Origin: Escherichia coli O157:H7
GTDB lineage: Bacteria > Pseudomonadota > Gammaproteobacteria > Enterobacterales > Enterobacteriaceae
Reading direction: 5' to 3' (one strand)
Assembly (NCBI RefSeq): GCF_013167455.1
Contig: NZ_CP038328.1
DNA: 64,000 nucleotides
Shown in pieces: positions 5,193 through 29,664 of this stretch (the stretch's first letter is position 1; every line of letters starts with the position of its first letter). Both the position numbers and the translations under genes were made by a program. The notes under the pieces were generated by a model. The model did not search any database. It saw nothing but the letters and a program-made list of their open reading frames with translations, and had not been told where the DNA came from.

Positions 5193-7675
5193 AACTCAGT
5201 CGTCGTAGCTTTATGAAAGCTAACGCCGTTGCGGCCGCTGCGGCGGCTGCCGGTCTCAGCGTGCCGGGCGTTGCCCGCGCCGTTGTTGGTCAGCAGGAAG
5301 CCATTAAATGGGATAAAGCGCCGTGCCGTTTCTGCGGTACTGGTTGCGGCGTTCTGGTCGGAACGCAGCAGGGGCGTGTGGTGGCCTGTCAGGGCGACCC
5401 GGACGCACCGGTTAACCGTGGCCTGAACTGCATTAAGGGCTATTTCCTGCCCAAGATCATGTACGGTAAAGACCGTTTGACGCAGCCGCTGCTGCGTATG
5501 AAAAACGGTAAATATGACAAAGAAGGCGAATTTACCCCAATCACCTGGGATCAGGCCTTCGATGTGATGGAAGAGAAATTCAAAACCGCCCTGAAAGAAA
5601 AAGGGCCGGAATCGATCGGTATGTTCGGTTCTGGTCAGTGGACTATCTGGGAAGGTTATGCCGCGTCCAAGCTGTTTAAAGCGGGCTTCCGTTCGAACAA
5701 CATCGACCCGAATGCGCGTCACTGTATGGCGTCGGCAGTAGTTGGCTTTATGCGAACCTTTGGTATGGATGAGCCGATGGGCTGCTATGACGACATCGAG
5801 CAGGCTGACGCGTTTGTGCTGTGGGGCGCAAACATGGCGGAGATGCACCCGATCCTCTGGTCACGCATCACTAACCGTCGTCTCTCTAACCAGGACGTCA
5901 CCGTGGCGGTGCTTTCAACCTACCAGCATCGTAGCTTCGAGCTGGCGGATAACGGCATCATCTTTACGCCGCAATCTGACCTGGTGATCCTGAACTACAT
6001 CGCCAACTATATCATTCAAAACAATGCGATAAATCAGGACTTCTTCAGCAAGCACGTTAACCTGCGCAAAGGGGCGACGGACATCGGCTACGGTTTACGT
6101 CCGACCCATCCGCTGGAAAAAGCAGCGAAGAATCCGGGTTCTGACGCCTCCGAACCGATGAGCTTTGAAGATTACAAAGCCTTCGTTGCTGAGTATACGC
6201 TGGAAAAAACCGCTGAAATGACTGGCGTACCAAAAGATCAGCTGGAACAACTGGCGCAGCTGTATGCCGATCCGAACAAGAAAGTCATCTCCTACTGGAC
6301 GATGGGCTTCAACCAGCATACTCGTGGCGTGTGGGCCAACAACCTGGTCTACAACCTGCACCTGCTGACCGGCAAAATTTCCCAGCCGGGTTGCGGTCCG
6401 TTCTCCCTGACCGGGCAGCCTTCCGCGTGTGGTACTGCGCGTGAAGTGGGCACCTTTGCTCACCGTCTGCCTGCGGACATGGTGGTAACTAACGAGAAAC
6501 ATCGTGATATCTGCGAGAAGAAGTGGAATATCCCGAGCGGCACCATTCCGGCGAAAATCGGTCTGCATGCGGTAGCACAAGACCGTGCGCTGAAAGACGG
6601 CAAGCTGAATGTTTACTGGACCATGTGTACCAACAACATGCAGGCCGGGCCGAACATTAATGAAGAGCGTATGCCGGGCTGGCGCGATCCGCGCAACTTC
6701 ATCATCGTCTCCGATCCGTATCCGACAGTCAGTGCGCTGGCCGCCGACTTGATCCTGCCGACCGCAATGTGGGTAGAAAAAGAGGGGGCTTACGGTAACG
6801 CCGAACGCCGTACTCAGTTCTGGCGTCAGCAGGTACAGGCGCCAGGCGAAGCGAAATCGGACCTCTGGCAGTTAGTCCAGTTCTCCCGCCGCTTCAAAAC
6901 TGAAGAAGTATGGCCGGAAGAGCTGCTGGCGAAGAAACCGGAACTGCGTGGCAAAACGCTGTACGAAGTTCTGTATGCCACCCCCGAAGTGAGCAAATTC
7001 CCGGTATCCGAACTGGCGGAAGATCAGCTGAACGATGAATCCCGCGAGCTGGGCTTCTATCTGCAAAAAGGGCTGTTCGAAGAGTACGCATGGTTTGGTC
7101 GCGGTCACGGTCACGATCTCGCGCCGTTCGATGACTACCACAAAGCGCGCGGTCTGCGCTGGCCGGTGGTGAACGGTAAAGAAACGCAGTGGCGTTACAG
7201 CGAAGGTAACGACCCGTACGTGAAAGCGGGCGAAGGCTATAAGTTCTACGGTAAACCGGATGGTAAAGCGGTGATCTTCGCGCTGCCGTTCGAACCGGCG
7301 GCGGAAGCACCGGATGAAGAGTACGACCTGTGGCTCTCTACCGGACGCGTCCTGGAGCACTGGCACACCGGCAGTATGACTCGCCGTGTGCCGGAACTGC
7401 ACCGTGCCTTCCCGGAAGCGGTCCTGTTTATTCACCCGCTGGATGCGAAAGCGCGCGATCTGCGCCGTGGCGACAAAGTGAAAGTGGTTTCTCGCCGTGG
7501 CGAAGTGATCTCGATTGTCGAAACGCGCGGTCGTAACCGTCCGCCGCAGGGCCTGGTGTACATGCCGTTCTTCGACGCCGCACAGCTGGTTAACAAACTA
7601 ACGCTGGACGCGACCGATCCGCTCTCGAAAGAGACGGACTTCAAGAAGTGCGCGGTCAAACTGGAGAAGGTGTAA
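5189..7675 (+). CDS. napA: Periplasmic nitrate reductase catalytic subunit NapA
   Basis: 828-aa ORF; Tat signal SRRSFMK; molybdopterin oxidoreductase with N-terminal Cys cluster. Confidence 0.95.
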
Positions 7676-17585: not shown

Positions 17586-20177
17586 ATGCATCAATCTGGT
17601 TCTGTTTCTCTTTGTCGTTCCGCAATATCTGTTCTGGTAGCTACAGCGTTATATTCACCCATAGCATTGGCATCAACAGTTGAGTATGGTGAGACAGTTG
17701 ATGGTGTTGTCCTGGAAAAAGATATCCAGCTGGTTTATGGGACCGCCAATAATACGAAAATCAATCCTGGCGGAGAACAGCATATTAAAGAATTTGGTAT
17801 AAGTAGTAATACTGAAATTAACGGCGGGTATCAGTACATTGAAATGAATGGCACCGCAGAATACTCAGTATTAAATGATGGTTATCAAATTGTTCAAATG
17901 GGTGGCGCGGCAAACCAGACTACGCTCAATAATGGTGTGCTACAGGTTTATGGCGCAGCGAATGATCCCACGATTAAAGGCGGGCGCTTAATCGTTGAAA
18001 AAGATGGGATTACCGTCCTTGCCGCTATCGAAAAGGGAGGATTACTGGAGGTTAAAGAGGGGGGATTAGCGATTGCGGTAGATCAGAAAGCAGGCGGTGC
18101 TATTAAAGCAAGCACGCGGGTCATGGAGGTATTCGGAACAAACCGTCTCGGTCAGTTCGAAATCAAGAATGGTATTGCTAACAATATGCTGTTGGAAAAC
18201 GGCGGAAGTTTGCGAGTTGAAGAAAATGACTTCGCTTATAATACTACTGTAGATAGTGGCGGCTTACTGGAGGTTATGGATGGCGGGACTGCAACTGGCG
18301 TTGATAAAAAAGCAGGCGGAAAATTAATTGTCTCAACGAATGCGCTGGAAGTGAGTGGTACAAACAGTAAAGGCCAATTTAGTATAAAAGATGGTGTGTC
18401 AAAAAATTATGAACTGGATGATGGTTCCGGGCTTATTGTTATGGAGGACACGCAGGCCATTGACACTATCCTCGATGAGCATGCCACTATGCAATCGCTG
18501 GGAAAGGATACTGGTACGAGAGTGCAGGCAAATGCGGTATATGATCTCGGTCGATCAGATCAGAATGGAAGTATAACGTATTCCTCTAAAGCCATCTCTG
18601 AAAATATGGTTATCAACAATGGCCGCGCTAACGTCTGGGCTGGCACAATGGTTAACGTGTCAGTCAGAGGAAATGATGGCATTCTTGAGGTTATGAAGCC
18701 GCAAATAAATTATGCACCCGCAATGTTGGTGGGTAAGGTAGTGGTTTCTGAGGGCGCTTCTTTAAGAACGCATGGTGCCGTGGATACCAGCAAAGCGGAT
18801 GTTTCGCTCGAAAATAGCGCATGGACCATCATTGCCGATATCACTACGACGAACCAAAACACCCGCCTTAACTTAGCCAACCTTGCGATGTCTGGCGCAA
18901 ATGTGATTATGATGGATGAGTCAGTGACTCGTTCATCTGTGACGGCAAGTGCGGAAAATTTCACTACGTTGACCACCAATACCCTGTCGGGAAACGGCAA
19001 TTTTTATATGCGTACCGATATGGCGAATCATCAGAGCGATCAGCTCAACGTCACCGGTCAGGCAACAGGTGATTTCAAAATATTCGTGACGGACACCGGT
19101 GCCAGCCCGGCAGCAGGAGATAGCCTTACACTGGTAACAACGGGCGGCGGTGATGCTGCATTTACGTTGGGCAATGCCGGAGGCGTTGTTGATATCGGTA
19201 CGTATGAATATACCTTGCTGGATAATGGTAACCATAGCTGGAGTCTGGCAGAGAATCGCGCGCAAATTACCCCTTCAACCACTGATGTGCTGAATATGGC
19301 GGCCGCACAACCGCTGGTATTTGATGCAGAACTGGACACCGTGCGTGAGCGTCTTGGTAGCGTAAAAGGCGTTAGTTACGATACGGCGATGTGGAGTTCG
19401 GCAATTAACACCCGCAACAACGTGACCACTGATGCGGGAGCTGGTTTTGAGCAAACATTGACGGGCCTGACGCTCGGTATCGATAGCCGTTTCTCCCGTG
19501 AAGAAAGCAGCACAATTCGCGGCTTGTTCTTTGGTTACTCTCATTCTGATATTGGTTTTGATCGCGGCGGCAAAGGCAATGTCGATAGCTATACCCTGGG
19601 GGCTTATGCCGGTTGGGAGCATCAGAACGGTGCCTATGTTGATGGAGTGGTGAAAGTTGACCGTTTTGCCAACACCATCCATGGCAAGATGAGTAATGGG
19701 GCAACAGCGTTTGGCGATTACAATAGTAACGGCGCGGGTGCTCATGTCGAGAGCGGGTTCCGTTGGGTTGACGGATTGTGGAGTGTTAGACCCTATCTGG
19801 CCTTTACCGGCTTTACCACAGATGGTCAGGACTACACGTTATCAAACGGCATGCGCGCGGATGTGGGAAATACCCGGATATTACGCGCTGAAGCGGGAAC
19901 GGCGGTAAGCTATCACATGGACCTGCAAAACGGTACGACGCTGGAACCCTGGCTGAAAGCCGCCGTGCGTCAGGAATACGCCGATTCTAACCAGGTGAAA
20001 GTTAATGACGATGGCAAATTTAATAATGATGTGGCTGGAACCCGTGGCGTTTATCAGGCTGGGATAAGGTCATCGTTTACCCCGACGTTAAGCGGTCATT
20101 TGTCAGTCAGCTATGGCAATGGCGCAGGGGTAGAATCGCCGTGGAATACCCAGGCGGGTGTGGTCTGGACGTTCTGA
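17586..20177 (+). CDS. yejO: Autotransporter adhesin-like protein YejO (intact)
   Basis: 863-aa ORF; signal peptide, repetitive beta-helix-like passenger, C-terminal beta-barrel ending in WTF. Confidence 0.8.
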   Translation: MHQSGSVSLCRSAISVLVATALYSPIALASTVEYGETVDGVVLEKDIQLVYGTANNTKINPGGEQHIKEFGISSNTEINGGYQYIEMNGTAEYSVLNDGYQIVQMGGAANQTTLNNGVLQVYGAANDPTIKGGRLIVEKDGITVLAAIEKGGLLEVKEGGLAIAVDQKAGGAIKASTRVMEVFGTNRLGQFEIKNGIANNMLLENGGSLRVEENDFAYNTTVDSGGLLEVMDGGTATGVDKKAGGKLIVSTNALEVSGTNSKGQFSIKDGVSKNYELDDGSGLIVMEDTQAIDTILDEHATMQSLGKDTGTRVQANAVYDLGRSDQNGSITYSSKAISENMVINNGRANVWAGTMVNVSVRGNDGILEVMKPQINYAPAMLVGKVVVSEGASLRTHGAVDTSKADVSLENSAWTIIADITTTNQNTRLNLANLAMSGANVIMMDESVTRSSVTASAENFTTLTTNTLSGNGNFYMRTDMANHQSDQLNVTGQATGDFKIFVTDTGASPAAGDSLTLVTTGGGDAAFTLGNAGGVVDIGTYEYTLLDNGNHSWSLAENRAQITPSTTDVLNMAAAQPLVFDAELDTVRERLGSVKGVSYDTAMWSSAINTRNNVTTDAGAGFEQTLTGLTLGIDSRFSREESSTIRGLFFGYSHSDIGFDRGGKGNVDSYTLGAYAGWEHQNGAYVDGVVKVDRFANTIHGKMSNGATAFGDYNSNGAGAHVESGFRWVDGLWSVRPYLAFTGFTTDGQDYTLSNGMRADVGNTRILRAEAGTAVSYHMDLQNGTTLEPWLKAAVRQEYADSNQVKVNDDGKFNNDVAGTRGVYQAGIRSSFTPTLSGHLSVSYGNGAGVESPWNTQAGVVWTF

Positions 20178-20237
20178 TAACAGACAATAAACAGGCCCTG
20201 ATGTGTCGCGGTCTGTTTATCGAATTAAATGCAGATA

Positions 20238-20270
20238 TAAAAAAACCAACCTTTACGGTTGGTTTTTTTG
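20238..20270 (+). terminator. Intrinsic terminator after yejO
   Basis: aaaaaACCAACC-ttta-CGGTTGGttttttt. Confidence 0.7.
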
Positions 20271-20275
20271 GGATT

Positions 20276-20292
20276 TTTGGTCGGCACGAGAG
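20276..20292. repeat. attL: 17-bp direct repeat TTTGGTCGGCACGAGAG, a copy of the tRNA-Pro 3' end
   Basis: Identical 17-mer at 29850-29866 overlapping the tRNA-Pro 3' end. Confidence 0.85.
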
Positions 20293-20353
20293 TAGTTTAA
20301 TTGAGTATGTAACTACATGATTTTAAATAATATGCTTGATTCAACTTTTAAAC

Positions 20354-20377
20354 CGTATAACTAAACGTATAACTAAA
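20354..20377 (+). repeat. Two tandem CGTATAACTAAA motifs at left end (candidate integrase arm-type sites)
   Basis: Same 12-mer present four times near the right end (29665-29720). Confidence 0.5.
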
Positions 20378-20559
20378 ATCATTTGCTGAAAAAGTGTACA
20401 ATTTAAATGCGAGTTTTCCTGTGGTAAAAGCTCCAACCGTAACGATGTTCGTTATGGTTGCCTTGATGGTCTGCGTGGTCATTATGACCATTCAGGATTT
20501 GAAGGGTGACGCTTCCGACTTCCTCAAATTGAGGTTTCCGAAAATATCAGCGGGTTAGG

Positions 20560-20860
20560 CCAGAGTGCAAATTTGCACTCTGGAACAATTCCAACCAGTA
20601 ATCAGCGCAATTTTGCGCTTTGCTTTAAGTTCAGCGAGTAACCGAAGGCGGAATTACGCCCTCGGTACTCACATATGAGAAACGATATTTCTTCCACCGA
20701 TACCCTTTATTTGGGTATCGCGAGTAAGCCCCAAAATCTGGGTGTTACTCTTACTACCCAAACTACGGGTATTTTCCGTAATTTCATGGTCGAGTTGCAG
20801 ATCTGCAACTCACCCACCAGCCAACGCAATTTTGCGCTTTGCTTTAAGTTCAACCAGTTA
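20560..20860. other. Hairpin-dense non-coding left arm of island with duplicated composite element
   Basis: Perfect 24-bp palindrome CCAGAGTGCAAATTTGCACTCTGG (20561-20584); GAGTTGCAGATCTGCAACTC (20791-20810); near-identical direct repeats containing GCGCAATTTTGCGCTTTGCTTTAAGTTCA (20605-20633 and 20826-20853); further hairpins at 20641-20666 and 20698-20718; no ORF with RBS. Confidence 0.6.
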
Positions 20861-21139
20861 CCGCCGTAACCGCTCCGGCTTCTTCCAGTGGTACGTAATT
20901 TTTGCTTTTTCCCTGTACGTCTGCACGCGGCGACGGTAGGCCAGCATTTCAAGAACGCGGATCCGTATGTTGCGCATATCAACGCCATTAAGTTCTATAC
21001 CATCACGGCGCATCACCTCAGCAACCACACGCGCGTAATTTTCGGCGGTCACGCTGTACGGCTGCGCGGTTTTTTCGTCAGCCTGCTGGCTGATTCCGGC
21101 GACGCGGCGGATTAATCCCAGTATTTCGGCTTCTGTCAT
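20858..21139 (-). CDS. Hypothetical 93-aa protein, last gene of island packaging/capsid operon
   Basis: ORF with RBS AGGTGGAG 41 nt downstream of the capsid-like gene stop; no recognisable motif. Confidence 0.5.
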   Translation of the reverse strand: MTEAEILGLIRRVAGISQQADEKTAQPYSVTAENYARVVAEVMRRDGIELNGVDMRNIRIRVLEMLAYRRRVQTYREKAKITYHWKKPERLRR

Positions 21140-21180
21140 TTCTCCACCTGGTCAGCTATTAAACTGCGAAAATTTCGTAA

Positions 21181-22149
21181 TTATCCCGATACGGGGATCA
21201 CCATATCGGGATTGATGCCGGAAAAATCAGCTTTCGCCAGAACGGTGACGGCCTTATCGAGTTTTTGCCATCCGCAATAGGTGATTGCCCTGAACGCTGT
21301 AGCGTCATTCTGGAAAAGGCTAACCGCCCCTGATTCGGTTTTTATTACCGCCTCATCAGTTGGGGTTATAACCGTGGCTTCAACGTTAATAATCAGCTTT
21401 TGAGCGTCTATCAGCATCATGCGATCCGCCTGTTCGCTCACAATTACCGGTATTCTCAAAAGCTCTATCTGCCAGAACTCAGCATCAGTAAGCTGTAATG
21501 CGTTTTCTACGGGCAAGATTAGCGACGACGTGGAAAGCGTGTTACCGTTCGCTATGTGCTTTTTGAAAAGCTCTATGAAGTTTTCGGCCTCATCAGCACC
21601 ATTAAGCACGCCCTCAGGGGATACGCCAGCCACCTCCTGATCACTGGAAAGAAATTTTTTATCTATTTCTTTCACCGATTCCGATGTGATCAAGTCTCTG
21701 ATCGCTGAATTGGTGCCAGGGGTGCTAAATTTGATTAGCTCGTTATTCAGCATCACAATAGCGCCAAGTTTGCACAGTTTTAGCGCGCTTTCGTTTACTT
21801 CTCCCTCTTTGACAGGGATTTCTTCTGCTTCTTTAAGCCATTTACTACCCTTGCCTGATATTGACTGCAATTTTGCGCCAAACGGAAGATTAAGCGCGCT
21901 GCTGATTAGCTTGCCTGGTACAGACTGCGAAAAAATATATTCTCCAAGCTCTCTTACTATCGGCTCTGCCACCAGCGACGGCATATTATCCGTAGTCATT
22001 CCGGCAATAATGGATTTTTCAAGAAATTTCGATACTGCCGGATCATTTCTTTTCGTCATCTCTATAGCGTCTGCATGGCTGAATTTACACGATGTAAGCA
22101 CGCTGGCGGCGCGAACTGCCGAAACGCCTTTCATGTTTTTAGAAATCAT
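21181..22149 (-). CDS. Putative HK97-fold major capsid protein-like
   Basis: ~322 aa; segments GKGSKWLKEAEEIPVKEGEVNESALKLCKLGAIVMLNNELIKFS and EGVLNGADEAENF resemble conserved Phage_capsid (HK97 family) motifs from memory; start taken at second ATG (9 nt after GGAGG). Confidence 0.5.
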   Translation of the reverse strand: MISKNMKGVSAVRAASVLTSCKFSHADAIEMTKRNDPAVSKFLEKSIIAGMTTDNMPSLVAEPIVRELGEYIFSQSVPGKLISSALNLPFGAKLQSISGKGSKWLKEAEEIPVKEGEVNESALKLCKLGAIVMLNNELIKFSTPGTNSAIRDLITSESVKEIDKKFLSSDQEVAGVSPEGVLNGADEAENFIELFKKHIANGNTLSTSSLILPVENALQLTDAEFWQIELLRIPVIVSEQADRMMLIDAQKLIINVEATVITPTDEAVIKTESGAVSLFQNDATAFRAITYCGWQKLDKAVTVLAKADFSGINPDMVIPVSG

Positions 22150-22300
22150 CTTCTTCATCCTCCTGGAAGCACGGGTTTAGTGTTTCGTGAAAATATGGCA
22201 TCAGAACAGCGGCGGCCTGTAACCGTATTTCGGTCGGCTGCTGCTTGTCGTTCATGATTTCCGTGAGTACATCAATAGGGTCTGTGATGTATTCGCTCAT
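22139..22300 (-). CDS. Small acidic protein (53 aa) between terS-like and capsid-like genes; below ORF-track threshold
   Basis: ATG with GAGGT RBS 11 nt after terS stop; MSEYITDPIDVLTEIMNDKQQ...EDEEDDF; overlaps capsid-like gene start. Confidence 0.4.
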   Translation of the reverse strand: MSEYITDPIDVLTEIMNDKQQPTEIRLQAAAVLMPYFHETLNPCFQEDEEDDF

Positions 22301-22311
22301 AGTTCGCTACC

Positions 22312-22800
22312 TCAGTGTTTTAAGTCTGTTGGTGGCTTAGGGATGGGGAACCGATTTGAGTAGACACTAGCGGCATTGAGTTTTTTAACCTCTTTTTTCC
22401 CAATGCTGCCGATCTTGCGGTGGGTGAACTGGGCCAGCTTAAACGCGGCATCTAAAGCCAGTTTTGGATCTGTGTCCATGTTGTCAATCAGTATCCTGCC
22501 CATTGCTTTGATGGGGTCGGGTAGGCCGTTATCCATCATCTCAATGGTGTTAATTGATGCCCGTTCCGGTGTAACTTTTTCGGTAACTTTCTTTGTAACT
22601 TTTTTCGGTTTTGTAACCTGAAAAGTTACATCAGAAGTTACAGCCTTAAGATACTTTTTCACCTCAGGATCGTTGGATAGCTGCCAGCCTTTAACCCTTG
22701 CGGTCTTTTCGCTGTATCCAGCATGTATAGCGGCTTCCGTGGGATTTGCGCCCCTTGATAACGCATCAGCAAACCGCTTTTTTTTGGTCGTTAATGCCAT
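22312..22800 (-). CDS. Terminase small subunit-like protein (TerS)
   Basis: Starts MALTTKKKRFADALSRGANPTEAAIHAGYSEKTARVKGWQL, matching the recalled TerS HTH motif (Terminase_2-type); GAGG RBS upstream; the 46-aa N-terminal extension in the track ORF is rejected. Confidence 0.6.
   Translation of the reverse strand: MALTTKKKRFADALSRGANPTEAAIHAGYSEKTARVKGWQLSNDPEVKKYLKAVTSDVTFQVTKPKKVTKKVTEKVTPERASINTIEMMDNGLPDPIKAMGRILIDNMDTDPKLALDAAFKLAQFTHRKIGSIGKKEVKKLNAASVYSNRFPIPKPPTDLKH
22565..22643. repeat. Array of AAAGTTAC / GTAACTTT repeats inside terS-like gene (candidate pac/terminase recognition site)
   Basis: At least six copies in both orientations, encoding the KKVTKKVTEKVT peptide; similar copies upstream at 22821-22850. 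Confidence 0.4.
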
Positions 22801-22927
22801 GCAAAAACCTCGTTTTGAGGGGGTGTAACTTTTCGTGTAACTTTTTTGAAAAGCAAAATTTTCTACGAATGAGACGGGGGGCGGTGTCCAGGGCGATCGA
22901 CTTTCCGGCCGGAACACTCCCCCCCTG

Positions 22928-23089
22928 TCATTGCTCACCGAGTAACGAGATCAGGCCTTCAACTTCATCACTCAGCTTGTTTATTCGTGTCTCAAGCTCT
23001 GCGATCTTTTCCATCAATGGCGCTATGGTGTCTCTTGTTTCCTCGCCAATGGCTTTAATGATGCTTGCCTCGCGTTCTGTGATAGCCAT
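22928..23089 (-). CDS. Small coiled-coil protein (53 aa); below ORF-track threshold
   Basis: ATG with GAGG RBS 8 nt upstream, 3 nt after stop of preceding ORF; MAITEREASIIKAIGEE... Confidence 0.4.
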   Translation of the reverse strand: MAITEREASIIKAIGEETRDTIAPLMEKIAELETRINKLSDEVEGLISLLGEQ

Positions 23090-23092
23090 TGT

Positions 23093-23287
23093 TTACGCCT
23101 CACTTGTTGCAATGCCCAGGCGTTCGCGTAACAGTACGCGCGCAAGATGCCCTATTGTTGGTGTTGCCGCCCTGCCGTAGATACCTGATTCATTCATCCG
23201 GCGCACAATATCGAACTGCAACTTTTTAAGCTCGTTAAGGATTTCATGATCAATCATCACGGTAGCGCTTTGCTTTATCTCTTCCAC
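23093..23287 (-). CDS. Small hypothetical protein (64 aa, GTG start), first gene of packaging operon; possibly DNA-binding
   Basis: ORF with GGAG RBS; located just downstream of a terminator. Confidence 0.4.
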   Translation of the reverse strand: MEEIKQSATVMIDHEILNELKKLQFDIVRRMNESGIYGRAATPTIGHLARVLLRERLGIATSEA

Positions 23288-23374
23288 TTTGTTTTCTCCA
23301 GATACTTATCATTGCATAACCAGTATTTTCGATAGATTATCATTAATTAACCATCTTTGAAGATATATGAGATC

Positions 23375-23399
23375 GAAAAAAAGCCGGATTGCTCCGGCT
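23375..23399 (-). terminator. Intrinsic terminator ending the replication module
   Basis: Minus-strand AGCCGGAGCAATCCGGCT followed by TTTTTTT. Confidence 0.7.
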
Positions 23400-23417
23400 A
23401 TGTGCTCACTTCTTCGG

Positions 23418-23657
23418 TTATTCTCCAGCGCTTTTAACGTTGATGGTTGTTACCTGTTCCGCTTCGGCAATCTCCCGTTCTGTCAGCGTGGCAAAGTTTG
23501 CCGCCGCTGTGGTCATGAATGCGCTTATCAGTTCGGGATGTGCTTTCGCATATCCTTCCCCGGCGTTGCGGTCGATGATTTTTATCGACACCCTTAACCA
23601 GTGTTCCGTCAAATCAAGGGCGTGCGATTGTGATTTTTTTGTGTGCTTCGCTGTCAT
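23418..23657 (-). CDS. Hypothetical 79-aa protein downstream of origin
   Basis: ORF only; weak RBS. Confidence 0.4.
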   Translation of the reverse strand: MTAKHTKKSQSHALDLTEHWLRVSIKIIDRNAGEGYAKAHPELISAFMTTAAANFATLTEREIAEAEQVTTINVKSAGE

Positions 23658-23699
23658 AGGCTTTATCTCACAGCAGTAAATTAAAATTTTTGCGTTTTA

Positions 23700-23935
23700 A
23701 CCCTTCACCTGTTCACCTTTTGATATTTTATCTTTTAATTCATAATGTTAAGGGGTGAACAGTTTCACAAAAACTATTCACCAACTATTCACCACTGTTC
23801 ACCCTTGAAGCTCAATAAACAATCAAAAAGGTGAACAGTGAATAGTTTGGTGAACAGTTCATAAATAACTGTTCACCCTATAATATACTGATATAAAAGA
23901 TATTTATGACAGGGTGAACAGTGGTGAACAGTTAT
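23700..23935. repeat. Iteron array (GGTGAACAG / CTGTTCACC, with CTATTCACC variants) and AT-rich tracts: putative island replication origin
   Basis: At least 8 perfect 9-mers in both orientations plus variants, immediately 3' of the primase-helicase gene. Confidence 0.75.
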
Positions 23936-23944
23936 TCCATAAGT

Positions 23945-25762
23945 TTAATTTTTGCTATCGTCATTAGTGACCGATACACATGACGGCATCCAGTCTTCTG
24001 ATTCCTCCGTCAGTGTCACGTTTGAACGCAAACCGTGCTTCGTTTTCCGTTTCATATACTCCCTGCCATATTCCGCCATTGCCCCCGGCATATCTTTACC
24101 GAAGCGCGTCAGTGTTACAGGTTTACCGAATCCGTGTGCCCTCATATATGCCAGATAGGCGTGATAAAGATACCTGCGCGGACTGAACGGAATAATTTCG
24201 GCATTACCCACTAACAGACCATCACACATTACCGACGACATGAGATAGCCGCAGAAGTCCACCAGCGAATCGCCCTCGCGTTTTATCACCAGAGCTTCTT
24301 CTGATTTCTGCTGCTCATACAGCAGGCGTTTAGCTTCGTCCTGGTCAGAAAAACGAGTAAGCAGGTGGCGAATCACAACCGCCAGCTCTCCTTCTATTTT
24401 TTCTGCCAGCATGGGGTCGCGTTCGTTTTCCGGTACAACCTCCGAAAAATTGAATATCACCCGACGACGTGAAATCCCCCCGCTGCGGTCACTGAATGAC
24501 ATGGCGTTATTGTTCACCGCCAACACTACCGCCTGAATGCGTGTTGAGTAGGGGGCTTTATGCTTCGGGTCGATTGCCACCTTGTCACCGCCTGTAATGG
24601 CCTTAATTCCTGCGCCATCACCAGCGTAACGGGTCATATCCGGCATGATAATCAGCGAAAAGCCAACCACTAACGCGCGTTCCCTGGCATCTTCCAGCGC
24701 CTTCATGCTTGCCGATACCGTGTTGGCCTTACCCGCCAGCATGGTGCAAATCTCCGCCATCACGCTTTTACCACTTCCCCCTGGACCTGTTACCTCAATG
24801 AATAACTGCCAGTCGTACCGGTTCGCCAGCACCATGAATAATGCAGCCAGTACGCGATCCGCCTTGCGGTCATTCTCAGCCACCGAACGGCGTAACCACT
24901 TCCAGAAATTCGGCGCATGTGTTGCCAGCGTTTCCCCCTCTGCTGGTGGGCTGAAAGGTAATTCACTGGCAATTAACAACCAGTCGTTTTTGTTATGCTC
25001 CCGAAAATCGCCTGTCCGGGTATCAAAAACACCGTTACTGAATCCAATCAGGTTACGGGCTGTATTCCCCATTACAGGCAAACTTAACTTCATGGTATCG
25101 ACCGCCGATTTAATGGCGTTCTGCGAATAGCTGATCTCCGCATCAATGAAAATCTGTGCCATAGCTCGCTGTAATTCTTTATCCTGTACTGGCTCCCATA
25201 CAACGCCGTTGTAATAGTGAACAGTGTCAGAGTCAGCATGAATCGCCAGTTCACCGCCATAATGTGCCAGGAGAACTTCGCCGCGTTGACTTGCTCCCAT
25301 CTGGTTAAGCGCCAGTGATGAAGCGTTATCGTCTTTTACCCGCTCTTTTTTCTTTACAGGCAGTTCAACTACCTTTTTCTTTTCCGCCTGCTCTGCCCGT
25401 TCACGTTCCAGATATTCGCGCCAGTTCTCCCGTTTCTGGCTGTGCATTCCTTCAGGGTAATAATCAGCATCCCTGACACCTGCCGCTGCCAGTTTCTGCC
25501 CGATGGTATTAACAAGCCCCGAACGCAATAACCCCGCCTGATAGAGACGCACGCGATAGCGTCCGTCCGGTACGATTTGCAGGTTGTCCAGTTCGGCAAG
25601 TTGTTGCTCTCCAAGCCAGACAGGTGGCACGTTATCGCCAGCCAGTCGCCCGTCCTGTTCCTGCCACTGCTTCGCATGTGCCCACGCATCACTACCCGCA
25701 AAAATGATGACTTCCGTCATTTTGTCACGTGGCTGGTGTTTTAAATTTGGCGCTTTTTTCAT
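23945..25762 (-). CDS. Replication initiator primase-helicase (P4 alpha / D5-like)
   Basis: ~605 aa; Walker A VTGPGGSGKS in C-terminal half; N-terminal region consistent with a primase-type domain; ATGA start/stop overlap with upstream ORF. Confidence 0.8.
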   Translation of the reverse strand: MKKAPNLKHQPRDKMTEVIIFAGSDAWAHAKQWQEQDGRLAGDNVPPVWLGEQQLAELDNLQIVPDGRYRVRLYQAGLLRSGLVNTIGQKLAAAGVRDADYYPEGMHSQKRENWREYLERERAEQAEKKKVVELPVKKKERVKDDNASSLALNQMGASQRGEVLLAHYGGELAIHADSDTVHYYNGVVWEPVQDKELQRAMAQIFIDAEISYSQNAIKSAVDTMKLSLPVMGNTARNLIGFSNGVFDTRTGDFREHNKNDWLLIASELPFSPPAEGETLATHAPNFWKWLRRSVAENDRKADRVLAALFMVLANRYDWQLFIEVTGPGGSGKSVMAEICTMLAGKANTVSASMKALEDARERALVVGFSLIIMPDMTRYAGDGAGIKAITGGDKVAIDPKHKAPYSTRIQAVVLAVNNNAMSFSDRSGGISRRRVIFNFSEVVPENERDPMLAEKIEGELAVVIRHLLTRFSDQDEAKRLLYEQQKSEEALVIKREGDSLVDFCGYLMSSVMCDGLLVGNAEIIPFSPRRYLYHAYLAYMRAHGFGKPVTLTRFGKDMPGAMAEYGREYMKRKTKHGLRSNVTLTEESEDWMPSCVSVTNDDSKN

Positions 25763-26058
25763 TTCTGCTCTCTCCACGCGGCAATCATGTTTTTCAGTTC
25801 CTGTAGTTTTTTATCAACATCCATACATGGCACATGGTTATTTCTGGAAGGCGGGATTTCCCGCCTGAATCTGCTAATAAAGATCTCCACGTTCAGCGAA
25901 CTATGAAATGAATAGCCATCACGAATAAAATACACACGGTCAAACATCAGTTCTTTTACCGTTACTCTGTTACCGTTCTTATCCAGATAAATAGCGCCGG
26001 GGATAATTTTTGGGTGTGCATAACCGCTGGCAGTCAAGCCAGATAAATATGTTCTCAT
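25759..26058 (-). CDS. Hypothetical protein (99 aa), translationally coupled to primase
   Basis: ORF with RBS; its stop overlaps the primase start (ATGA). Confidence 0.5.
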   Translation of the reverse strand: MRTYLSGLTASGYAHPKIIPGAIYLDKNGNRVTVKELMFDRVYFIRDGYSFHSSLNVEIFISRFRREIPPSRNNHVPCMDVDKKLQELKNMIAAWREQK

Positions 26059-26064
26059 GATTAT

Positions 26065-26385
26065 TTATCCCCGATTTGAATCAGTATTCGCTTTCTTTAT
26101 GGCATTTAATGCATCTGTGGCATTTTCAATGGTGCACCGTAACGAAATATTAAACTGTCCAAGCATTGCCAGTAACAAACCGATATTACCCATATCAATG
26201 CGCATGACCTTTTCGTCATAGTCCTCATTTTCTGACGCATGCCACATCAGGCTACCAATTGACGCAACAGCCATTGATATATTGTCAGTAGCCCCATCCG
26301 CAGCGGAATAAACCTTTTTAGCAATATCATGCTCACAGTTAAAATGCGGATTAATCAGGTACTGGTAATTTGACATATCAGGCAT
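26065..26385 (-). CDS. Hypothetical protein (106 aa, starts MPDMSNYQY)
   Basis: Start overlaps upstream stop (ATGCCTGA); track ORF N-terminal extension rejected. Confidence 0.5.
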   Translation of the reverse strand: MPDMSNYQYLINPHFNCEHDIAKKVYSAADGATDNISMAVASIGSLMWHASENEDYDEKVMRIDMGNIGLLLAMLGQFNISLRCTIENATDALNAIKKANTDSNRG

Positions 26386-26935
26386 GGCACACCCCCTGAC
26401 GAATACGGGCGGCGAATACAGCAACACAACCGGACGGGCAACGGCTACGCGCTTCGCGTTCCGTCCAGGCGGTTACGTGGATGATTTGATGTTCTGACGC
26501 GCCAAAGATGATAAAGCGCCAGAGAAAGGCGGTTTGAGAATGTACAAGGGTAGGGATAGTAGCCATGTTGGCAGCCTCCTCAGTGTGGTTAAGATAACCG
26601 CCACCGGAAACGCCAATTTCGCTGGTGGCGGACTGTACAGGGTTGGCGTAACCGGACACTGAAGAAACCGGCGCGGATTGCTCCGCCCCCGTACAGCCCA
26701 CCATTGATAAGGTGTGACTATGCGGCACAAAAAAACACGCGGGGCGCGTGTTATGCGCTTCAGTTTTGCCCAGGACGCCAATCCCGGCACCCGTTTTATG
26801 AGGTGCGCGGGAATCATAGCTATTTTCGACACTGGCGATCAACTGGTTTTTTTCTCCGATATTCAGGGCCAGAAAACGCCACACAAAGGCCGTTTGTGTG
26901 TGTACAAGGTGTGGTATATGATTTACGGCAACCAT
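26378..26935 (-). CDS. Hypothetical protein with internal tandem duplication (possible Ash/Icd-like small-protein family); may be one 185-aa ORF or two in-frame cistrons
   Basis: AGGAG RBS before ATG at 26935; motif IPxLVHxQTAFxWRF occurs twice (N-terminus and at the internal Met at 26566, preceded by GAGGAGG); family name is an unverified recollection. Confidence 0.45.
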   Translation of the reverse strand: MVAVNHIPHLVHTQTAFVWRFLALNIGEKNQLIASVENSYDSRAPHKTGAGIGVLGKTEAHNTRPACFFVPHSHTLSMVGCTGAEQSAPVSSVSGYANPVQSATSEIGVSGGGYLNHTEEAANMATIPTLVHSQTAFLWRFIIFGASEHQIIHVTAWTEREARSRCPSGCVAVFAARIRQGVCHA

Positions 26936-26966
26936 AACGGCTCCTAGTTTACGTTGTTGGTTAGAA

Positions 26967-27008
26967 GCCCTGCGAGTGGTAACGACACTTGCGGGGCTTT
27001 GTCTTTTC
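26967..27008 (+). terminator. Plus-strand-specific terminator-like hairpin within the 5' leader region of the minus-strand replication operon
   Basis: 12-bp stem GCCCTGCGAGTG/CACTTGCGGGGC; both mismatches are G-U wobbles only in the plus-strand RNA; followed by TTTGTCTTTTC. Confidence 0.45.
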
Positions 27009-27026
27009 ATCGATTACCTTGATAAA

Positions 27027-27108
27027 GGTGTCAGCCACTATATTAGTAACAGGTGTCAGCCACGTCAATAGTGTTTTTCCGTTTTCTTGTGTGTATACTG
27101 TCAGCCAC
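27027..27108. promoter_or_regulatory. Divergent promoter region with three GTCAGCCAC operator-like repeats
   Basis: GGTGTCAGCCAC at 27027-27038 and 27052-27063, TGTCAGCCAC at 27099-27108 adjacent to a TATACT -10-like hexamer. Confidence 0.55.
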
Positions 27109-27129
27109 CTAATAACGAGGAAATCAGAT

Positions 27130-27309
27130 ATGGCAACAAAAGCAGTTAATGCAAAATCCAAAAAGCTTGAGGCTCGAGTACCACACGCAATAGCTGATGC
27201 TGTAGAAAATTTAAAGGAAGATGGCGAAAGTACAGGGCAATTTATCGTTTCGGCACTTGAAGGCGAGATCAAACGCCGCCAGCGCCGCAAGGCCAAAGAA
27301 TCAGAATAA
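27130..27309 (+). CDS. Small ribbon-helix-helix-like DNA-binding protein (candidate island repressor)
   Basis: 59-aa ORF with AGGAAA RBS; predicted beta-strand/helix/helix pattern typical of Arc/CopG-type proteins; divergent from replication operon. Confidence 0.5.
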   Translation: MATKAVNAKSKKLEARVPHAIADAVENLKEDGESTGQFIVSALEGEIKRRQRRKAKESE

Positions 27310-27366
27310 TCACTATCAGCGCCGTGGTGTGAGGTATTACGGCGCATTGCTATGCAGGACAACACA

Positions 27367-27540
27367 ATGACCGATAAAGAATTGACCAAAACATTATCAC
27401 CGGCACGGAAAAGACGGCGCAGAAAGATAGAGCATGAATCAGAAAGATTCGCACCATGTGCTTTTGCCCTTGAGCAATTCCTTAAAGAGTACAGGGAAAA
27501 GCGCTCATTGCAGGTATGGCAACGAACTGAACCAGACTGA
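27367..27540 (+). CDS. Small basic hypothetical protein (~57 aa)
   Basis: ORF with AGGA RBS; arginine-rich segment RKRRRRK. Confidence 0.35.
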   Translation: MTDKELTKTLSPARKRRRRKIEHESERFAPCAFALEQFLKEYREKRSLQVWQRTEPD

Positions 27541-27633
27541 TTGCATTGCCCACCAGCCTGATAGCGGCTATCATCCCCGTGCTTATGTTTGGGATCACAT
27601 ACACATAAGGCGCAGCGGGTTAATTGTTCAGAA

Positions 27634-27660
27634 AGGCGGCTCCATATCGGGGCCGCTTTT
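27634..27660 (+). terminator. Intrinsic terminator after plus-strand small genes
   Basis: 8-bp stem GCGGCTCC/GGGGCCGC (one G-U), loop ATATC, then TTTTTT. Confidence 0.7.
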
Positions 27661-27688
27661 TTCGTGTTTGTCATATCTGTGATACCCG

Positions 27689-27895
27689 TTAAGCAGCCGT
27701 TCCGCGTGCTTCCTCTTCGCGTTCTTTCTGCCAGGACAACACATCATCCTCATACCATCCGCGACGGCGTAAACCAACGCGAAAACCCTGCGGAAATTCT
27801 CCGGCGTTGATCATGCTTTGCAGCGTGCTGTCTGCCTTGATGTGGATAATTTTTTTTACTTCCTGGCGAAAGATAATTTTTCTGATTGCTTCCAT
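27689..27895 (-). CDS. alpA: AlpA-family phage regulatory protein / excisionase-like HTH
   Basis: 68-aa ORF; motif STLQSMINAGEFPQGFRVGLRRRGWYEDDVLSW resembles AlpA. Confidence 0.75.
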   Translation of the reverse strand: MEAIRKIIFRQEVKKIIHIKADSTLQSMINAGEFPQGFRVGLRRRGWYEDDVLSWQKEREEEARGTAA

Positions 27896-27912
27896 CGTGA
27901 TTTACCTTGTGA

Positions 27913-27930
27913 ATCCGGTGTATTCCGGTG
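27913..27930. promoter_or_regulatory. Two TCCGGTG motifs upstream of alpA (same motif repeated upstream of int)
   Basis: aATCCGGTGtaTTCCGGTGa; the same heptamer occurs about 5 times at 29743-29844. Confidence 0.4.
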
Positions 27931-28033
27931 ACAAATACGGTAAATCATCGGATATGGGTAAAAACAGTTCCCACCGTTTTTAAACGGTATACACCGTTTT
28001 TTATATTGATGATTTGAAATGGAATTATAAAAA

Positions 28034-28060
28034 AAGCGGCATTTCTGCCGCTTCCAGGAT
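28034..28060 (-). terminator. Intrinsic terminator after the 83-aa ORF
   Basis: Minus-strand GGAAGCGGCAGAAATGCCGC followed by TTTTTTT. Confidence 0.6.
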
Positions 28061-28062
28061 TG

Positions 28063-28314
28063 TTACCGCCATTTTTTGGGCCTGCCTCCGATCTTCATAG
28101 ATGCCGGACGTACGACCTTATCAATACTTACCGCCAGATTTCTGGAAGCGCCACGGGATACCAGAAAATCTACTACCTGTTTTTTTGATGGGGCCGTCGT
28201 TCTGTCCTCCGGATCGTAGGTTGACCAAAATTCATGCTGAACCATCAGGGCCAGTTGCAGCCCGTCGCAATTGCATCTGATATTTTTTTGCATCTTAACG
28301 GTTTCATGTTTCAC
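28063..28314 (-). CDS. Hypothetical 83-aa protein between int and alpA (CxC motif, basic C-terminus)
   Basis: ORF only. Confidence 0.4.
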   Translation of the reverse strand: MKHETVKMQKNIRCNCDGLQLALMVQHEFWSTYDPEDRTTAPSKKQVVDFLVSRGASRNLAVSIDKVVRPASMKIGGRPKKWR

Positions 28315-28391
28315 GGCCTTGTCGTTAAATTTGATGCAATTATACGACGGTTTTACATGGTTTTCGTAGTTTTTACTGGTTTTCTGTACAG

Positions 28392-29633
28392 CTACACGGC
28401 TCGGATACCCCTTTTACCACTGGCGAGGGTTACGCCCGTCGCCGCGGCCTCGACAAATTCGCCCCACCAGCGCATCAGCACGATGCGTTTTTCTATGTAG
28501 TTGCTCCGGTTGTATGCCCGTCTAACTTCGTTGGTGTCGACGTGGGCAAGTGCCGCCTCTATTACGTCCGGCTCGAATCCTTCCTCGTTCGCTGCTGTGC
28601 TGAATATGGCGCGTAATCCATGAGACACCAGCACGCCAGCGAATCCCATACGCCGCAATGCTGCGTTAGCTGTCTGGCTGTTCATCGGCTGCTGTGGGTC
28701 TTTCAGACTTGGGAAAACGTAATTGCGGTGGTGGCTGATTGGTTTCATGGCCTCCAGCACCGCCATAGCCTGACCGGAAAGCGGGATAACGTGATCCCTG
28801 CGCATCTTCATGCGTCCGGCAGGTATCGTCCATTGCTTCGCGTCCAGGTTGATTTCATCCCACCGCGTTGATGACGCTTCGGCGGGACGGGTTACGGTCA
28901 GTAACTGCCATTCAATCAGTAATCTGGTCTGCCGTTCTGTTGCCGATACTGATAAAGCCTGCATAAGCTCGGGCAGCTGTTCGGGGCGGATTGTTGGCAT
29001 ATGTTTTTTTACAGGTGAGGGAAACGCCTTACGCACATTCATAGCCGGATTGGCATCAATCAGCCCACTGTTGGCGGCGTAATCCATTACCTCATTAACG
29101 CGCTGTAAAACCCGCTTGAGTGTTTCCAGGTTGCCGCGCTCCTTGATGGGGGTAAGCACTTCAACGAACCTTCGGGCGGTGAGGGTATCTATTGGCGTGT
29201 TGCCGATGAACGGGAATACATATTTATCCAGCGAACGCCAGATGTCTTTAATCGTGTTGGGGGCCAGATTCTGGCTGATTTTCACCTGGTACCATGCCGC
29301 CGCCACATTTTCGAACGTGTTCCCTTGTCTTCGGGCCTCTGTCTCTCTTTTTTGCCTCTCGTGGTCCTGCGGGTCAGTTCCGGCACTGATTAACGTCCTG
29401 TACTCGCTACGGCGTTTTCTGGCATCAGCCAGGGAAACATCTTCAAGCGATCCAAAACTCAGCAATATTCTTTTTTTGTCCGATGGTCGGTAGTAGGAAA
29501 ATCTCCAGAGTTTTGATCCAGACGGTTTGACCAGGAGAAAAAGCCCTCCGCCGTCCTGCAGGGTGTACTCCTTTTGCGCTGGTCTGGCTGCTTTGATCTG
29601 CACTGTGGTTAATGGGTGTGTTTTTCTCGCCAT
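28392..29633 (-). CDS. int: Tyrosine recombinase, P4-family integrase
   Basis: ~413 aa from MARKTHPLT; N-terminal DGGGLFLLVKPSGSKLWRF arm-binding-like domain; catalytic HGLR and RAYNRSNY(Y) motifs; adjacent to tRNA. Confidence 0.9.
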   Translation of the reverse strand: MARKTHPLTTVQIKAARPAQKEYTLQDGGGLFLLVKPSGSKLWRFSYYRPSDKKRILLSFGSLEDVSLADARKRRSEYRTLISAGTDPQDHERQKRETEARRQGNTFENVAAAWYQVKISQNLAPNTIKDIWRSLDKYVFPFIGNTPIDTLTARRFVEVLTPIKERGNLETLKRVLQRVNEVMDYAANSGLIDANPAMNVRKAFPSPVKKHMPTIRPEQLPELMQALSVSATERQTRLLIEWQLLTVTRPAEASSTRWDEINLDAKQWTIPAGRMKMRRDHVIPLSGQAMAVLEAMKPISHHRNYVFPSLKDPQQPMNSQTANAALRRMGFAGVLVSHGLRAIFSTAANEEGFEPDVIEAALAHVDTNEVRRAYNRSNYIEKRIVLMRWWGEFVEAAATGVTLASGKRGIRAV

Positions 29634-29664
29634 ATGTCTATGATTCCACACGAAAAAACAGGGT

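Follow-up and report, generated by a model that had tools for sequence, protein, structure and literature searches.

Palindrome arrays at the end of Escherichia coli phage satellites are homologous to an element inside phage Rha/Roi regulator genes

The DNA analysed here (the window) is a stretch of 64,000 nucleotides from Escherichia coli O157:H7 (contig NZ_CP038328.1), in which a 9.6-kb island lies between yejO and tRNA-Pro(ggg) (29852-29928, - strand). Judged by its genes, this island is a satellite of the P4-like or phage-inducible chromosomal island (PICI) kind. Its integrase-distal end is formed by a non-coding arm rich in hairpins. We found that modules of this arm are homologous to an element located inside the coding sequence of phage Rha and Roi regulator genes, in which a palindrome is combined with a sequence fitting the consensus for binding by integration host factor (IHF). 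A first-pass annotation, made from the sequence alone, had offered three candidates for the arm, namely a packaging signal, a structured non-coding RNA or a cluster of regulator sites, and it is the last of these that we favour.

The individual sequence elements described in that annotation are all present. The 24-bp palindrome CCAGAGTGCAAATTTGCACTCTGG and the 20-bp palindrome GAGTTGCAGATCTGCAACTC are both perfect, lie far outside what chance would produce and correspond to the palindrome of unit D and to palindrome J of block F-J, respectively (Table 1). The 29-nt repeat occurs at 20605-20633 and 20824-20852, with a single mismatch at the first base and starts 219 bp apart; no such match is expected in the shuffled window, and the similarity stretches to 53 nt at 83% identity. 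Each copy has a palindrome upstream of it (gaps of 21 nt for the first and 12 nt for the second copy), and additional stem-loops occur between them (F, G, H and I). The arm also lies where it had been placed, at the island end after the last gene (93 aa) of an operon for a small terminase (TerS) and a capsid-like protein. However, its proposed length of ~300 bp was too short, as hairpins are found further to the left (module A, module B and the palindrome of unit C) and the arm covers about 20420-20863. Mechanical open reading frames (ORFs) cross the arm (64 aa on the + strand, 93 aa on the - strand). They hardly resemble genes, given that islands differ at few places in the + frame and that those inspected by eye were all non-synonymous. 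Folding of 20420-20860 in comparison to dinucleotide shuffles resulted in z = -9.65 for the + strand and -10.4 for the - strand, a highly non-random signal with the strand symmetry expected for palindromes.

The array in the window consists of four units (C, D, E1 and E2), arranged in tandem and in a single orientation. Each unit has a length of ~46 nt and is composed of a variable palindrome (arms of 4-12 bp, centre of 0-4 nt), a 10-11-nt linker (TTYSSGRAAW) and the motif ATCA(A/G)CNNGTTA(C/G)(C/G). The same architecture was examined in 44 non-redundant arms, i.e., the window, four annotated loci and IMG/VR loci. Here, the motif is found from one to at least seven times per arm, in the same orientation throughout. 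An inverted repeat of at least 5 bp ends 9-12 nt before ATCA in 57 of the 74 distinct unit contexts, compared to 2.1 in shuffles. The palindrome slot is filled by 21 distinct strings, which fall into about 10 unrelated types. Variants with compensated changes in both arms were detected as well (AGCGC..GCGCT and AGCTC..GAGCT; GGTCAT..ATGACC and AATCAT..ATGATT; AGCGCAATTTTGCGCT and AGCTCAATTTTGAGCT), and other islands contain such variants of unit D (CAGAATGTAAATTTACATTCTG) and of module B (AATCATAATGATT).

The core of the motif, ATCA(A/G)NNNNTTA with a preceding A or T, fits the IHF consensus WATCARNNNNTTR (PMC8421141). In the 44 arms, 74 perfect matches to this consensus were found in the orientation of the array and four in the opposite orientation, with about two expected for both strands together; since the 74 copies are related to each other, this count reflects conservation of a consensus-fitting repeat rather than independent events. 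The perfect match of the window is part of unit C. An IHF site spans ~35 bp and has an A/T-rich tract on its left side. The A/T-rich palindrome centres (AAATT, AATTTT), ~17-21 nt upstream of ATCA, and the GAAAAT at the linker end, with a spacing set against that of the lambda H' site, may or may not correspond to this tract.

Phage sequences were searched for counterparts of the units. Compared by BLAST with 50,697 phage records, unit C matched a single location, within roi of lambdoid phages (HK620, H-19B, Stx phages and others), and its orientation was the same there. The HK620 roi segment CCGGCTTCCTCAAATTGAGGTTTCCGAAAGAATCAATAACTTAGGG, which encodes IRLPQIEVSERINNLG, is identical to the window copy at 33/36 positions and to the best satellite copy at 34/37. 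A composite query of the other unit types produced matches at the same position of other alleles annotated as roi, "DNA-binding protein" or antirepressor. Further unit types matched roi, "DNA-binding protein" or Rha alleles at 45/49, 34/39, 35/43, 32/37, 37/43 and 33/39 positions. The first 21 nt of unit E1 are found without a mismatch (21/21) within a Rha-family gene of ~90 Stx2a phages (ORF55 of P13374), and the best satellite copy of unit E matches the Rha gene of Stx2a phages at 33/39. Overall, unit types and phage element are 80-92% identical and share their orientation in every case. The phage proteins concerned are assigned to the families phrog_63 (anti-repressor Ant/Roi), phrog_518 (Rha-like) and phrog_129. 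For unit D, the searches yielded no counterpart in phages, the exact 22-mer of its palindrome occurring in only one viral contig, and modules A and B gave only matches at chance level in BLAST against phages.

At the protein level, the similarity between arms and Rha/Roi is limited to the 15-22 residues covered by the unit; the arms lack the parts coding for the helix-turn-helix (HTH) and the C-terminus. Across 412 kb of satellite loci, no gene for a Rha/Roi homologue was found, and any binding protein would consequently be phage-borne. As the arm element is non-coding and has neither an HTH flank nor a Rha/Roi gene of its own, it represents a derived copy and not a strict member of the intragenic element. 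Free of coding constraints, the satellite palindromes come closer to perfect symmetry than their phage counterparts (e.g., CCCCCAATGGGGG versus CCCCCAATGGTGG; arms of 10-12 bp versus 5-9 bp), and one satellite copy is nearer to the IHF consensus than its phage copy (AAGAATCAA versus AATAAACAA). The more perfect palindromes, together with the compensated variants, indicate that symmetry is selected in the satellite.

Homology to coding sequence, a mosaic content differing between islands and a + strand ORF (20675-20869) weakly similar to the Rha N-terminus would also be explained if the units were functionless fragments of Rha/Roi genes, left behind by recombination between satellites and lambdoid phages or, in a variant of this idea, retained as recombination substrates only. 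We regard such neutral debris as quite unlikely, since only the ~46-nt element is present and never the flanking HTH or C-terminal coding parts, and since the copies abut in phase and keep their geometry in most contexts. Perfected palindromes and compensated variants argue in the same direction, as does the frequency of the arm: a piece of 20400-20900 is present in 1454/5426 complete E. coli genomes (~27%).

The position of the palindrome inside the phage regulator genes was analysed using four INPHARED genes plus 80 IMG/VR loci for the Roi type and the genes of loci L235-L314 for the Rha type. In Roi-type genes, the palindrome occupies a constant codon position in the N-terminal coding region, a few residues after the HTH, and is followed by an IHF-consensus sequence at the same distance as in the satellite units. 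At least five palindrome types exist (CCTCAAATTGAGG, CCTGCATTGCAGG, CCCCCAATGGTGG, CGCCAATGGCG and TTTCCACAGACTGTGGAAA). Each of them is accompanied by its own recognition helix, while the remaining domain is nearly identical. The Rha-type genes (38-100% identity) contain GCGCAA(TT/AA)TTGCGC in four subfamilies having the helix GK(E/N)HK(D/E)VL(R/K). Depending on the subfamily, this palindrome (GCGCAAnnTTGCGC) is encoded in one of two reading frames (ERNFAL or AQNCAL). In contrast, a closer Rha group, that of L250 (60% identity), has the helix GKLPKNVVR and a different palindrome, CAAAGCTCAACTTTGAGCTTTG. A palindrome which tracks the helix and survives a change of frame is as expected if it is the operator of the protein encoded around it. 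The intragenic palindrome thereby supports autoregulation from within the coding sequence and is an unusually clear case of a DNA element maintained there. Roi of phage HK022 reportedly binds to a site in its own gene near an IHF site, with IHF stabilising the complex. Rha is detrimental to phage growth in the absence of IHF, and rha is regulated by IHF (PMC4936722).

Tentatively, we therefore take the arm to be a multi-allele array in which operators of phage Rha/Roi regulators are each accompanied by an IHF site. Protein binding and its effect, which we infer from anatomy and homology of the array, might proceed as follows. The palindrome would be a Rha/Roi operator and the neighbouring site would bind IHF, which bends the DNA and stabilises the complex. 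In this way, the satellite would present operators of multiple specificities to the regulators of co-resident or infecting lambdoid phages. During satellite replication, the array would capture phage proteins of low abundance which regulate their own synthesis. The outcome could be a decoy disturbing phage control or a phage-dependent nucleoprotein mark on the satellite DNA, used as a sensor or roadblock. A more far-reaching version, which we consider doubtful, describes the arm as a re-assortable library of operator-plus-IHF decoys taken from the interiors of Rha/Roi genes, which would titrate phage proteins, sense or sabotage many lambdoid phages and have its modules swapped as the alleles change.

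Several points weigh against Rha/Roi operators in the arm. The palindrome is equated with the Roi site by inference from sequence, and the covariation of HTH helix and palindrome could partly reflect the physical linkage of adjacent variable segments. Of the four window units, a single one matches the IHF consensus perfectly, whereas D, E1 and E2 have degenerate versions with 2-3 mismatches. In the Rha-type genes, the motif downstream of the palindrome either deviates from the consensus by one mismatch or is missing. Palindromes of 20-24 bp without a spacer exceed the usual length of operators. Block F-J (20636-20811), in which conservation of the arm is highest, is without a counterpart in phages and stands outside the operator model. 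Further, phage HK106 is the experimentally proven helper of EcCIEDL933, a capsid-forming PICI (cf-PICI) like the arm-bearing ones at L001 and L003 (cf-PICI preprint), and no roi was found in HK106 between ninF and ninG or elsewhere in 26-41.5 kb. Roi is consequently not needed for helper function, and the array is not required for helping as such.

The arm is not confined to the island of the window. Together with the 93-aa gene, it terminates at least four types of satellite on the side away from the integrase, and these types differ in their integrases, attachment (att) sites, capsid genes and terminase genes. The first is the window island at tRNA-Pro, with TerS and a capsid-like protein. 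The second type (L001, L003) comprises cf-PICIs in tqsA with a complete HK97-type head and HNH-TerS-TerL. The third (L002) is located next to clpS and encodes DUF1441 and a protease-capsid fusion, and the fourth (L004), in caiT, has a capsid, a decoration protein and another TerS. Conservation in related islands, on which the first-pass annotation had made its interpretation depend, was thus observed, with the elements kept and re-assorted across many islands: pieces of the 44 arms are re-ordered, duplicated and lost between islands, resulting in a mosaic. In the arms of L070 and L084, an insertion of ~190 nt is present about 470-280 nt from the end of the 93-aa gene. It contains four GTCAC repeats (TTGTCACGGTGTGTCACTGGTTGTCACTCTCCGTCACG), and part of it resembles DNA in the lysozyme region of Stx phages. 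Primer IHE3034-adjustchlor-2c, belonging to the cat insertion in the IHE3034 PICI (PMC6092414 supplement), matches the att-proximal part of the L002-type arm (L002 about 6785-6850). Marked islands used in transfer assays may be altered in the arm, and such constructs may therefore not be neutral.

The same distribution bears on the packaging signal proposed earlier, in which the arm would be a cos or pac site, the palindromes would bind terminase and the IHF sites would act like I1 of lambda cosB. At the end of the island, the arm does have packaging and capsid genes as neighbours, lambda-like cosB typically consists of protein sites with IHF sites interleaved (PMC9026076), and the island has its own TerS and no recognisable cos elsewhere. 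Nevertheless, this explanation is very improbable, since arm modules occur in islands with four different, unrelated packaging systems and 51/80 related satellites have a lambda-type cosN outside the arm, upstream of the 93-aa gene. The PICI cos sites described in publications are adjacent to rpp (PMC6739421, PMC9026076), and the units derive from phage regulator genes instead of cos regions. A search of 20200-29900, arm included, for lambda cosN (GGGCGGCGACCT, up to 2 mismatches) gave no match. The layout of cosB, with R repeats directly upstream of the terS/rpp start, is not found either, as the arm is situated downstream of the operon's last gene and ~1.5 kb from terS (22312-22938). In the 51 satellites (out of L005-L084), two inverted lambda-type cosN flank the gene upstream of the 93-aa gene, the second lying ~76 nt before the start codon of the latter (e.g., L005 2058 (+) and 2925 (-)); in L004, the positions are 7708 and 8575. 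This pair is reminiscent of cos1/cos2 of EcCICFT073.

Even less probable is an accessory role in excision or integration, with IHF sites and palindromes extending the attL arm and binding integrase, the excisionase (AlpA) or other directionality factors. Such a role would suit the distances at which the arm starts, ~130 bp for the att core and 45 bp for the arm-type integrase repeats, and IHF sites are standard in att arms. However, the DNA common to the satellite types begins only at 20420, just past the island-specific integrase sites. It is 98% identical in islands with another att site and other arm-type repeats (GACTACACC instead of CGTATAACT), and the arm reaches ~590 bp from the core, far beyond known att arms.

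If transcribed, either as the 3' untranslated region of the late operon or as a separate small RNA, the arm could form hairpins which stabilise the mRNA or bind a factor. The folding z score of about -10, compensatory changes preserving the stems, sequence conservation of block F-J across islands and the location directly downstream of the operon fit this idea. On the other hand, the folding signal of both strands is symmetric and many palindrome centres are 0-2 nt long and unsuited to RNA loops. No Rfam 15 match was obtained at E <= 1 in 20200-21200, the only matches of the island being C4, isrK and tRNA elsewhere, and no promoter-like site was detected in 20100-22400. Units are shuffled, duplicated and lost between islands, and their phage homologue lies inside coding sequence, in differing frames and with a matching HTH helix. 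The structured RNA of the first-pass annotation thus found no positive support and appears unlikely, though the conserved block 20636-20811 might still be one.

A similarly low probability is assigned to an insulator, in which hairpin and bound IHF block RNA polymerase and the stack of units stops + strand transcription that comes from the chromosome or across attP and runs antisense into the late operon. All units face the operon (74 versus 4), the distance between hairpin and site is fixed, and T-rich linkers follow many hairpins (TTTCCG, TTTGCTTT, TTTTCG). In the arm, two terminator-like sites (20604-20619, 20755-20771) were scored for the + strand but none for the - strand, and an intragenic roadblock could also explain the reported IHF regulation of rha. 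However, T runs are short, most units having no run of 5 or more, and a terminator scan detected 5 sites in the window region against 2.6 +/- 1.9 in shuffles, with one unit-type match each in L038 and L052. A single orientation follows from tandem duplication as well, and the variation of the palindrome with the phage HTH helix is left unexplained. Indeed, the link between helix and palindrome is explained by none of the non-coding RNA, terminator/insulator, debris and att alternatives.

Further known elements with hairpins were considered and rejected. An IS200/IS605-like end (hairpin, 10 nt and TCAA, with TTAC as target) does not agree with ~10 unrelated hairpins and with varying bases 7-10 nt after the hairpin foot (AAAA, GAAT, TTAA). 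Ends of IS200/IS605 elements have one conserved subterminal hairpin recognised by TnpA and a conserved cleavage tetranucleotide. For the window island and islands of the L001-L004 types, the ORFs which were searched or annotated did not include a noted tnpA. Integron attC sites (GTTRRRY; motif GTTAGGC) were dismissed because the hairpins are unrelated, an inverse core site is missing and neither a transposase nor IntI is encoded nearby. A replication origin was rejected as the arm is common to islands with different primase/helicase types.

Block F-J, the most widely conserved part of the arm, is satellite-specific and contains five palindromes and several TACCC/GGGTA repeats, with fewer substitutions than covariation modelling would require. 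BLAST of this block against phages gave only chance-level matches. Viral contigs contain 63 exact copies of palindrome J, nearly all of them surrounded by the same H-J block. The block may be bound by a satellite protein, for which the 93-aa protein is the obvious candidate, or may form a structured RNA. A 64-aa ORF (20675-20869, + strand), which spans block G-J and unit E2, was rejected as a gene, given the non-synonymous differences seen by eye and a frame over the E hairpin that differs between islands. It is weakly similar to the N-terminus of the Stx2a-phage Rha (28% over 43 aa), a similarity driven by RNFALC, and the block around it might be a very old remnant of a Rha gene.

The 93-aa protein has ~1000 close relatives, mostly in E. 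coli; no homologues were found in phage genomes. Neither PDB sequences, Pfam and NCBIfam nor Foldseek-PDB returned a match, and a scan of genome contigs with this protein found nothing. Its structure model is helical with a predicted local distance difference test (pLDDT) value of 73, and homology to Rpp was rejected at the sequence level. The C-terminus Y-x-W-KKPERLRR is nearly invariant, even in relatives at 46-60% identity. The last codons of the gene also belong to the first array unit and to a small inverted repeat (GTTAC..GTAAC), and GTTACCG of unit E2 overlaps the stop codon (20858-20860) and the last Arg codons. The conservation of the C-terminus may therefore be partly a constraint at the DNA level, and the gene, which borders the array in all cases, may belong to one module with it.

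The window otherwise contains typical E. coli genes, including ccm genes, narP, the autotransporter gene yejO and yejM. Within the island, genes are mainly on the - strand (P4-type integrase, P4-family primase, small terminase, a 325-aa protein and the 93-aa gene), in addition to a YlcI/YnfO gene on the + strand, C4 antisense RNA and isrK. Rfam places C4 antisense RNA at 26621-26708 (77.6 bits) and isrK at 26730-26806 (66 bits), both on the - strand; there is a weak a1/b1 target match at 26767-26819, and mechanical ORFs overlap this region. It is predicted to be a P4/P1-type RNA immunity region within the island. The 325-aa protein (21181-22158, - strand) matches only the C-terminal half of the HK97-type major capsid profiles phrog_617 and phrog_10 and is just under the cut-off of TIGR01554. 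Its neighbour is the small terminase phrog_641 (22312-22938, - strand); the island has no portal, protease or large terminase. The 325-aa protein may redirect capsid size, similar to Ccm of the Staphylococcus aureus pathogenicity islands. Beside int, four more arm-type repeats (TTAGTTATACG) are present at 29665-29721, two per orientation, which give both island ends a common 26-nt word distinct from the palindrome arm. The int side also has an IHF-consensus match (AATCAAGTGATTA, 29786-29798) and, between int and the tRNA (29726-29845), five copies of an ATCCGG(T/C)G-like motif.

Table 1. Position and composition of the arm elements and adjacent features in the window.
Feature	Position	Strand	Description
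att core	attL 20276-20292; partner 29850-29866		17-bp direct repeat TTTGGTCGGCACGAGAG, equal to the 3' end of tRNA-Pro
Integrase arm-type repeats (two)	20351-20374	+	(A)ACCGTATAACT / AAACGTATAACT; family CGTATAACTAA
Module A	20435-20459		Hairpin AACCGTAACGA-TGT-TCGTTATGGTT; first element common to other satellite types
Module B	20476-20490		Palindrome TGGTCATTATGACCA between conserved TCTGCG and TTCAG
Unit C	20514-20559	+	Palindrome CCTCAAATTGAGG (20522-20534), linker TTTCCGAAAAT, TATCAGCGGGTTA (20545-20557)
Unit D	20560-20604	+	Perfect 24-bp palindrome (20560-20583), then degenerate motif AACAATTCCAACCAGTAATCA
Unit E1 (repeat copy 1)	20604-20644	+	Palindrome AGCGCAATTTTGCGCT (20604-20619), linker TTGCTTTAAG, degenerate motif TTCAGCGAGTAACCG
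Palindrome F of block F-J	20636-20670
Palindrome G of block F-J	20699-20719
Palindrome H of block F-J	20722-20750
Palindrome I of block F-J	20755-20771		Alternative 20764-20780
Palindrome J of block F-J	20792-20811
Unit E2 (repeat copy 2)	20824-20863	+	Palindrome CGCAATTTTGCG, linker, TTCAACCAGTTACCG
93-aa gene	20858-21139	-	phrog_1561; always the last gene before the arm

A literature search yielded no description of the arm and no connection of PICIs to Rha/Roi or IHF at this locus. On the perception and manipulation of lambdoid phages by PICIs and cf-PICIs of Gram-negative bacteria, activation of alpA by the helper is all that the literature offers (cf-PICI preprint). The arm is a concrete link between satellites and the very common and poorly understood Rha/Roi class. 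Provided that the array works as a decoy or sensor, it would represent a protein-free device for interference or sensing and a useful marker of the phages met by the satellite. Should the doubtful idea of a decoy library be true, the array would be a record of an arms race written in operators.

Among known systems, the bacterial interspersed mosaic elements BIME-1, also termed reiterative ihf BIMEs (RIB) or repetitive IHF-binding palindromic elements (RIP), reportedly consist of repetitive extragenic palindromic (REP) sequences flanking an IHF site. Similar to the arm, they are mosaics in which extragenic palindromes are combined with an IHF site, they follow the last gene of an operon and they vary in copy number. 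However, the arm palindromes, compared by eye with REP, do not resemble it; they have many unrelated sequences, are confined to satellites and derive from phage genes. In addition, the IHF site of BIMEs is between two inverted REPs, whereas the arm is a head-to-tail array. The P_LL promoter of satellite P4 is said to have Cox boxes which are bound by the Cox protein of its helper P2. As in the mechanism proposed for the arm, satellite repeats there serve the regulator of another phage. Nevertheless, Cox boxes are direct repeats upstream of a promoter for one helper, while the arm, which is not known to have a promoter target, has palindromes with IHF sites downstream of an operon at the island end and many specificities, and there is no sequence relation. 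Lambda-like cosB (R3-I1-R2-R1) and PICI cos-rpp (PMC9026076, PMC6739421) share with the arm protein-binding repeats and IHF sites near packaging genes. Unlike cosB, the arm has no cosN/cosQ and no R-like direct repeats, and it is not upstream of terS or rpp. The arm units are homologous (33/36 to 45/49) to the region of roi/rha genes in which the Roi/IHF site of HK022 roi reportedly lies. The Rha family is known from phi80 and P22 (PMC4936722). They have the palindrome of the roi/rha region, its spacing of 10-11 nt and the IHF-consensus sequence of the Roi-type genes. In contrast to this element, the arm is non-coding and tandem, combines several allele types per array and has longer and more perfect palindromes, in a satellite without Rha/Roi. 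A cluster of phage-regulator sites on a satellite is thus known as such, whereas tandem, re-assortable modules of presumed operators from the interiors of genes are an unprecedented architecture.

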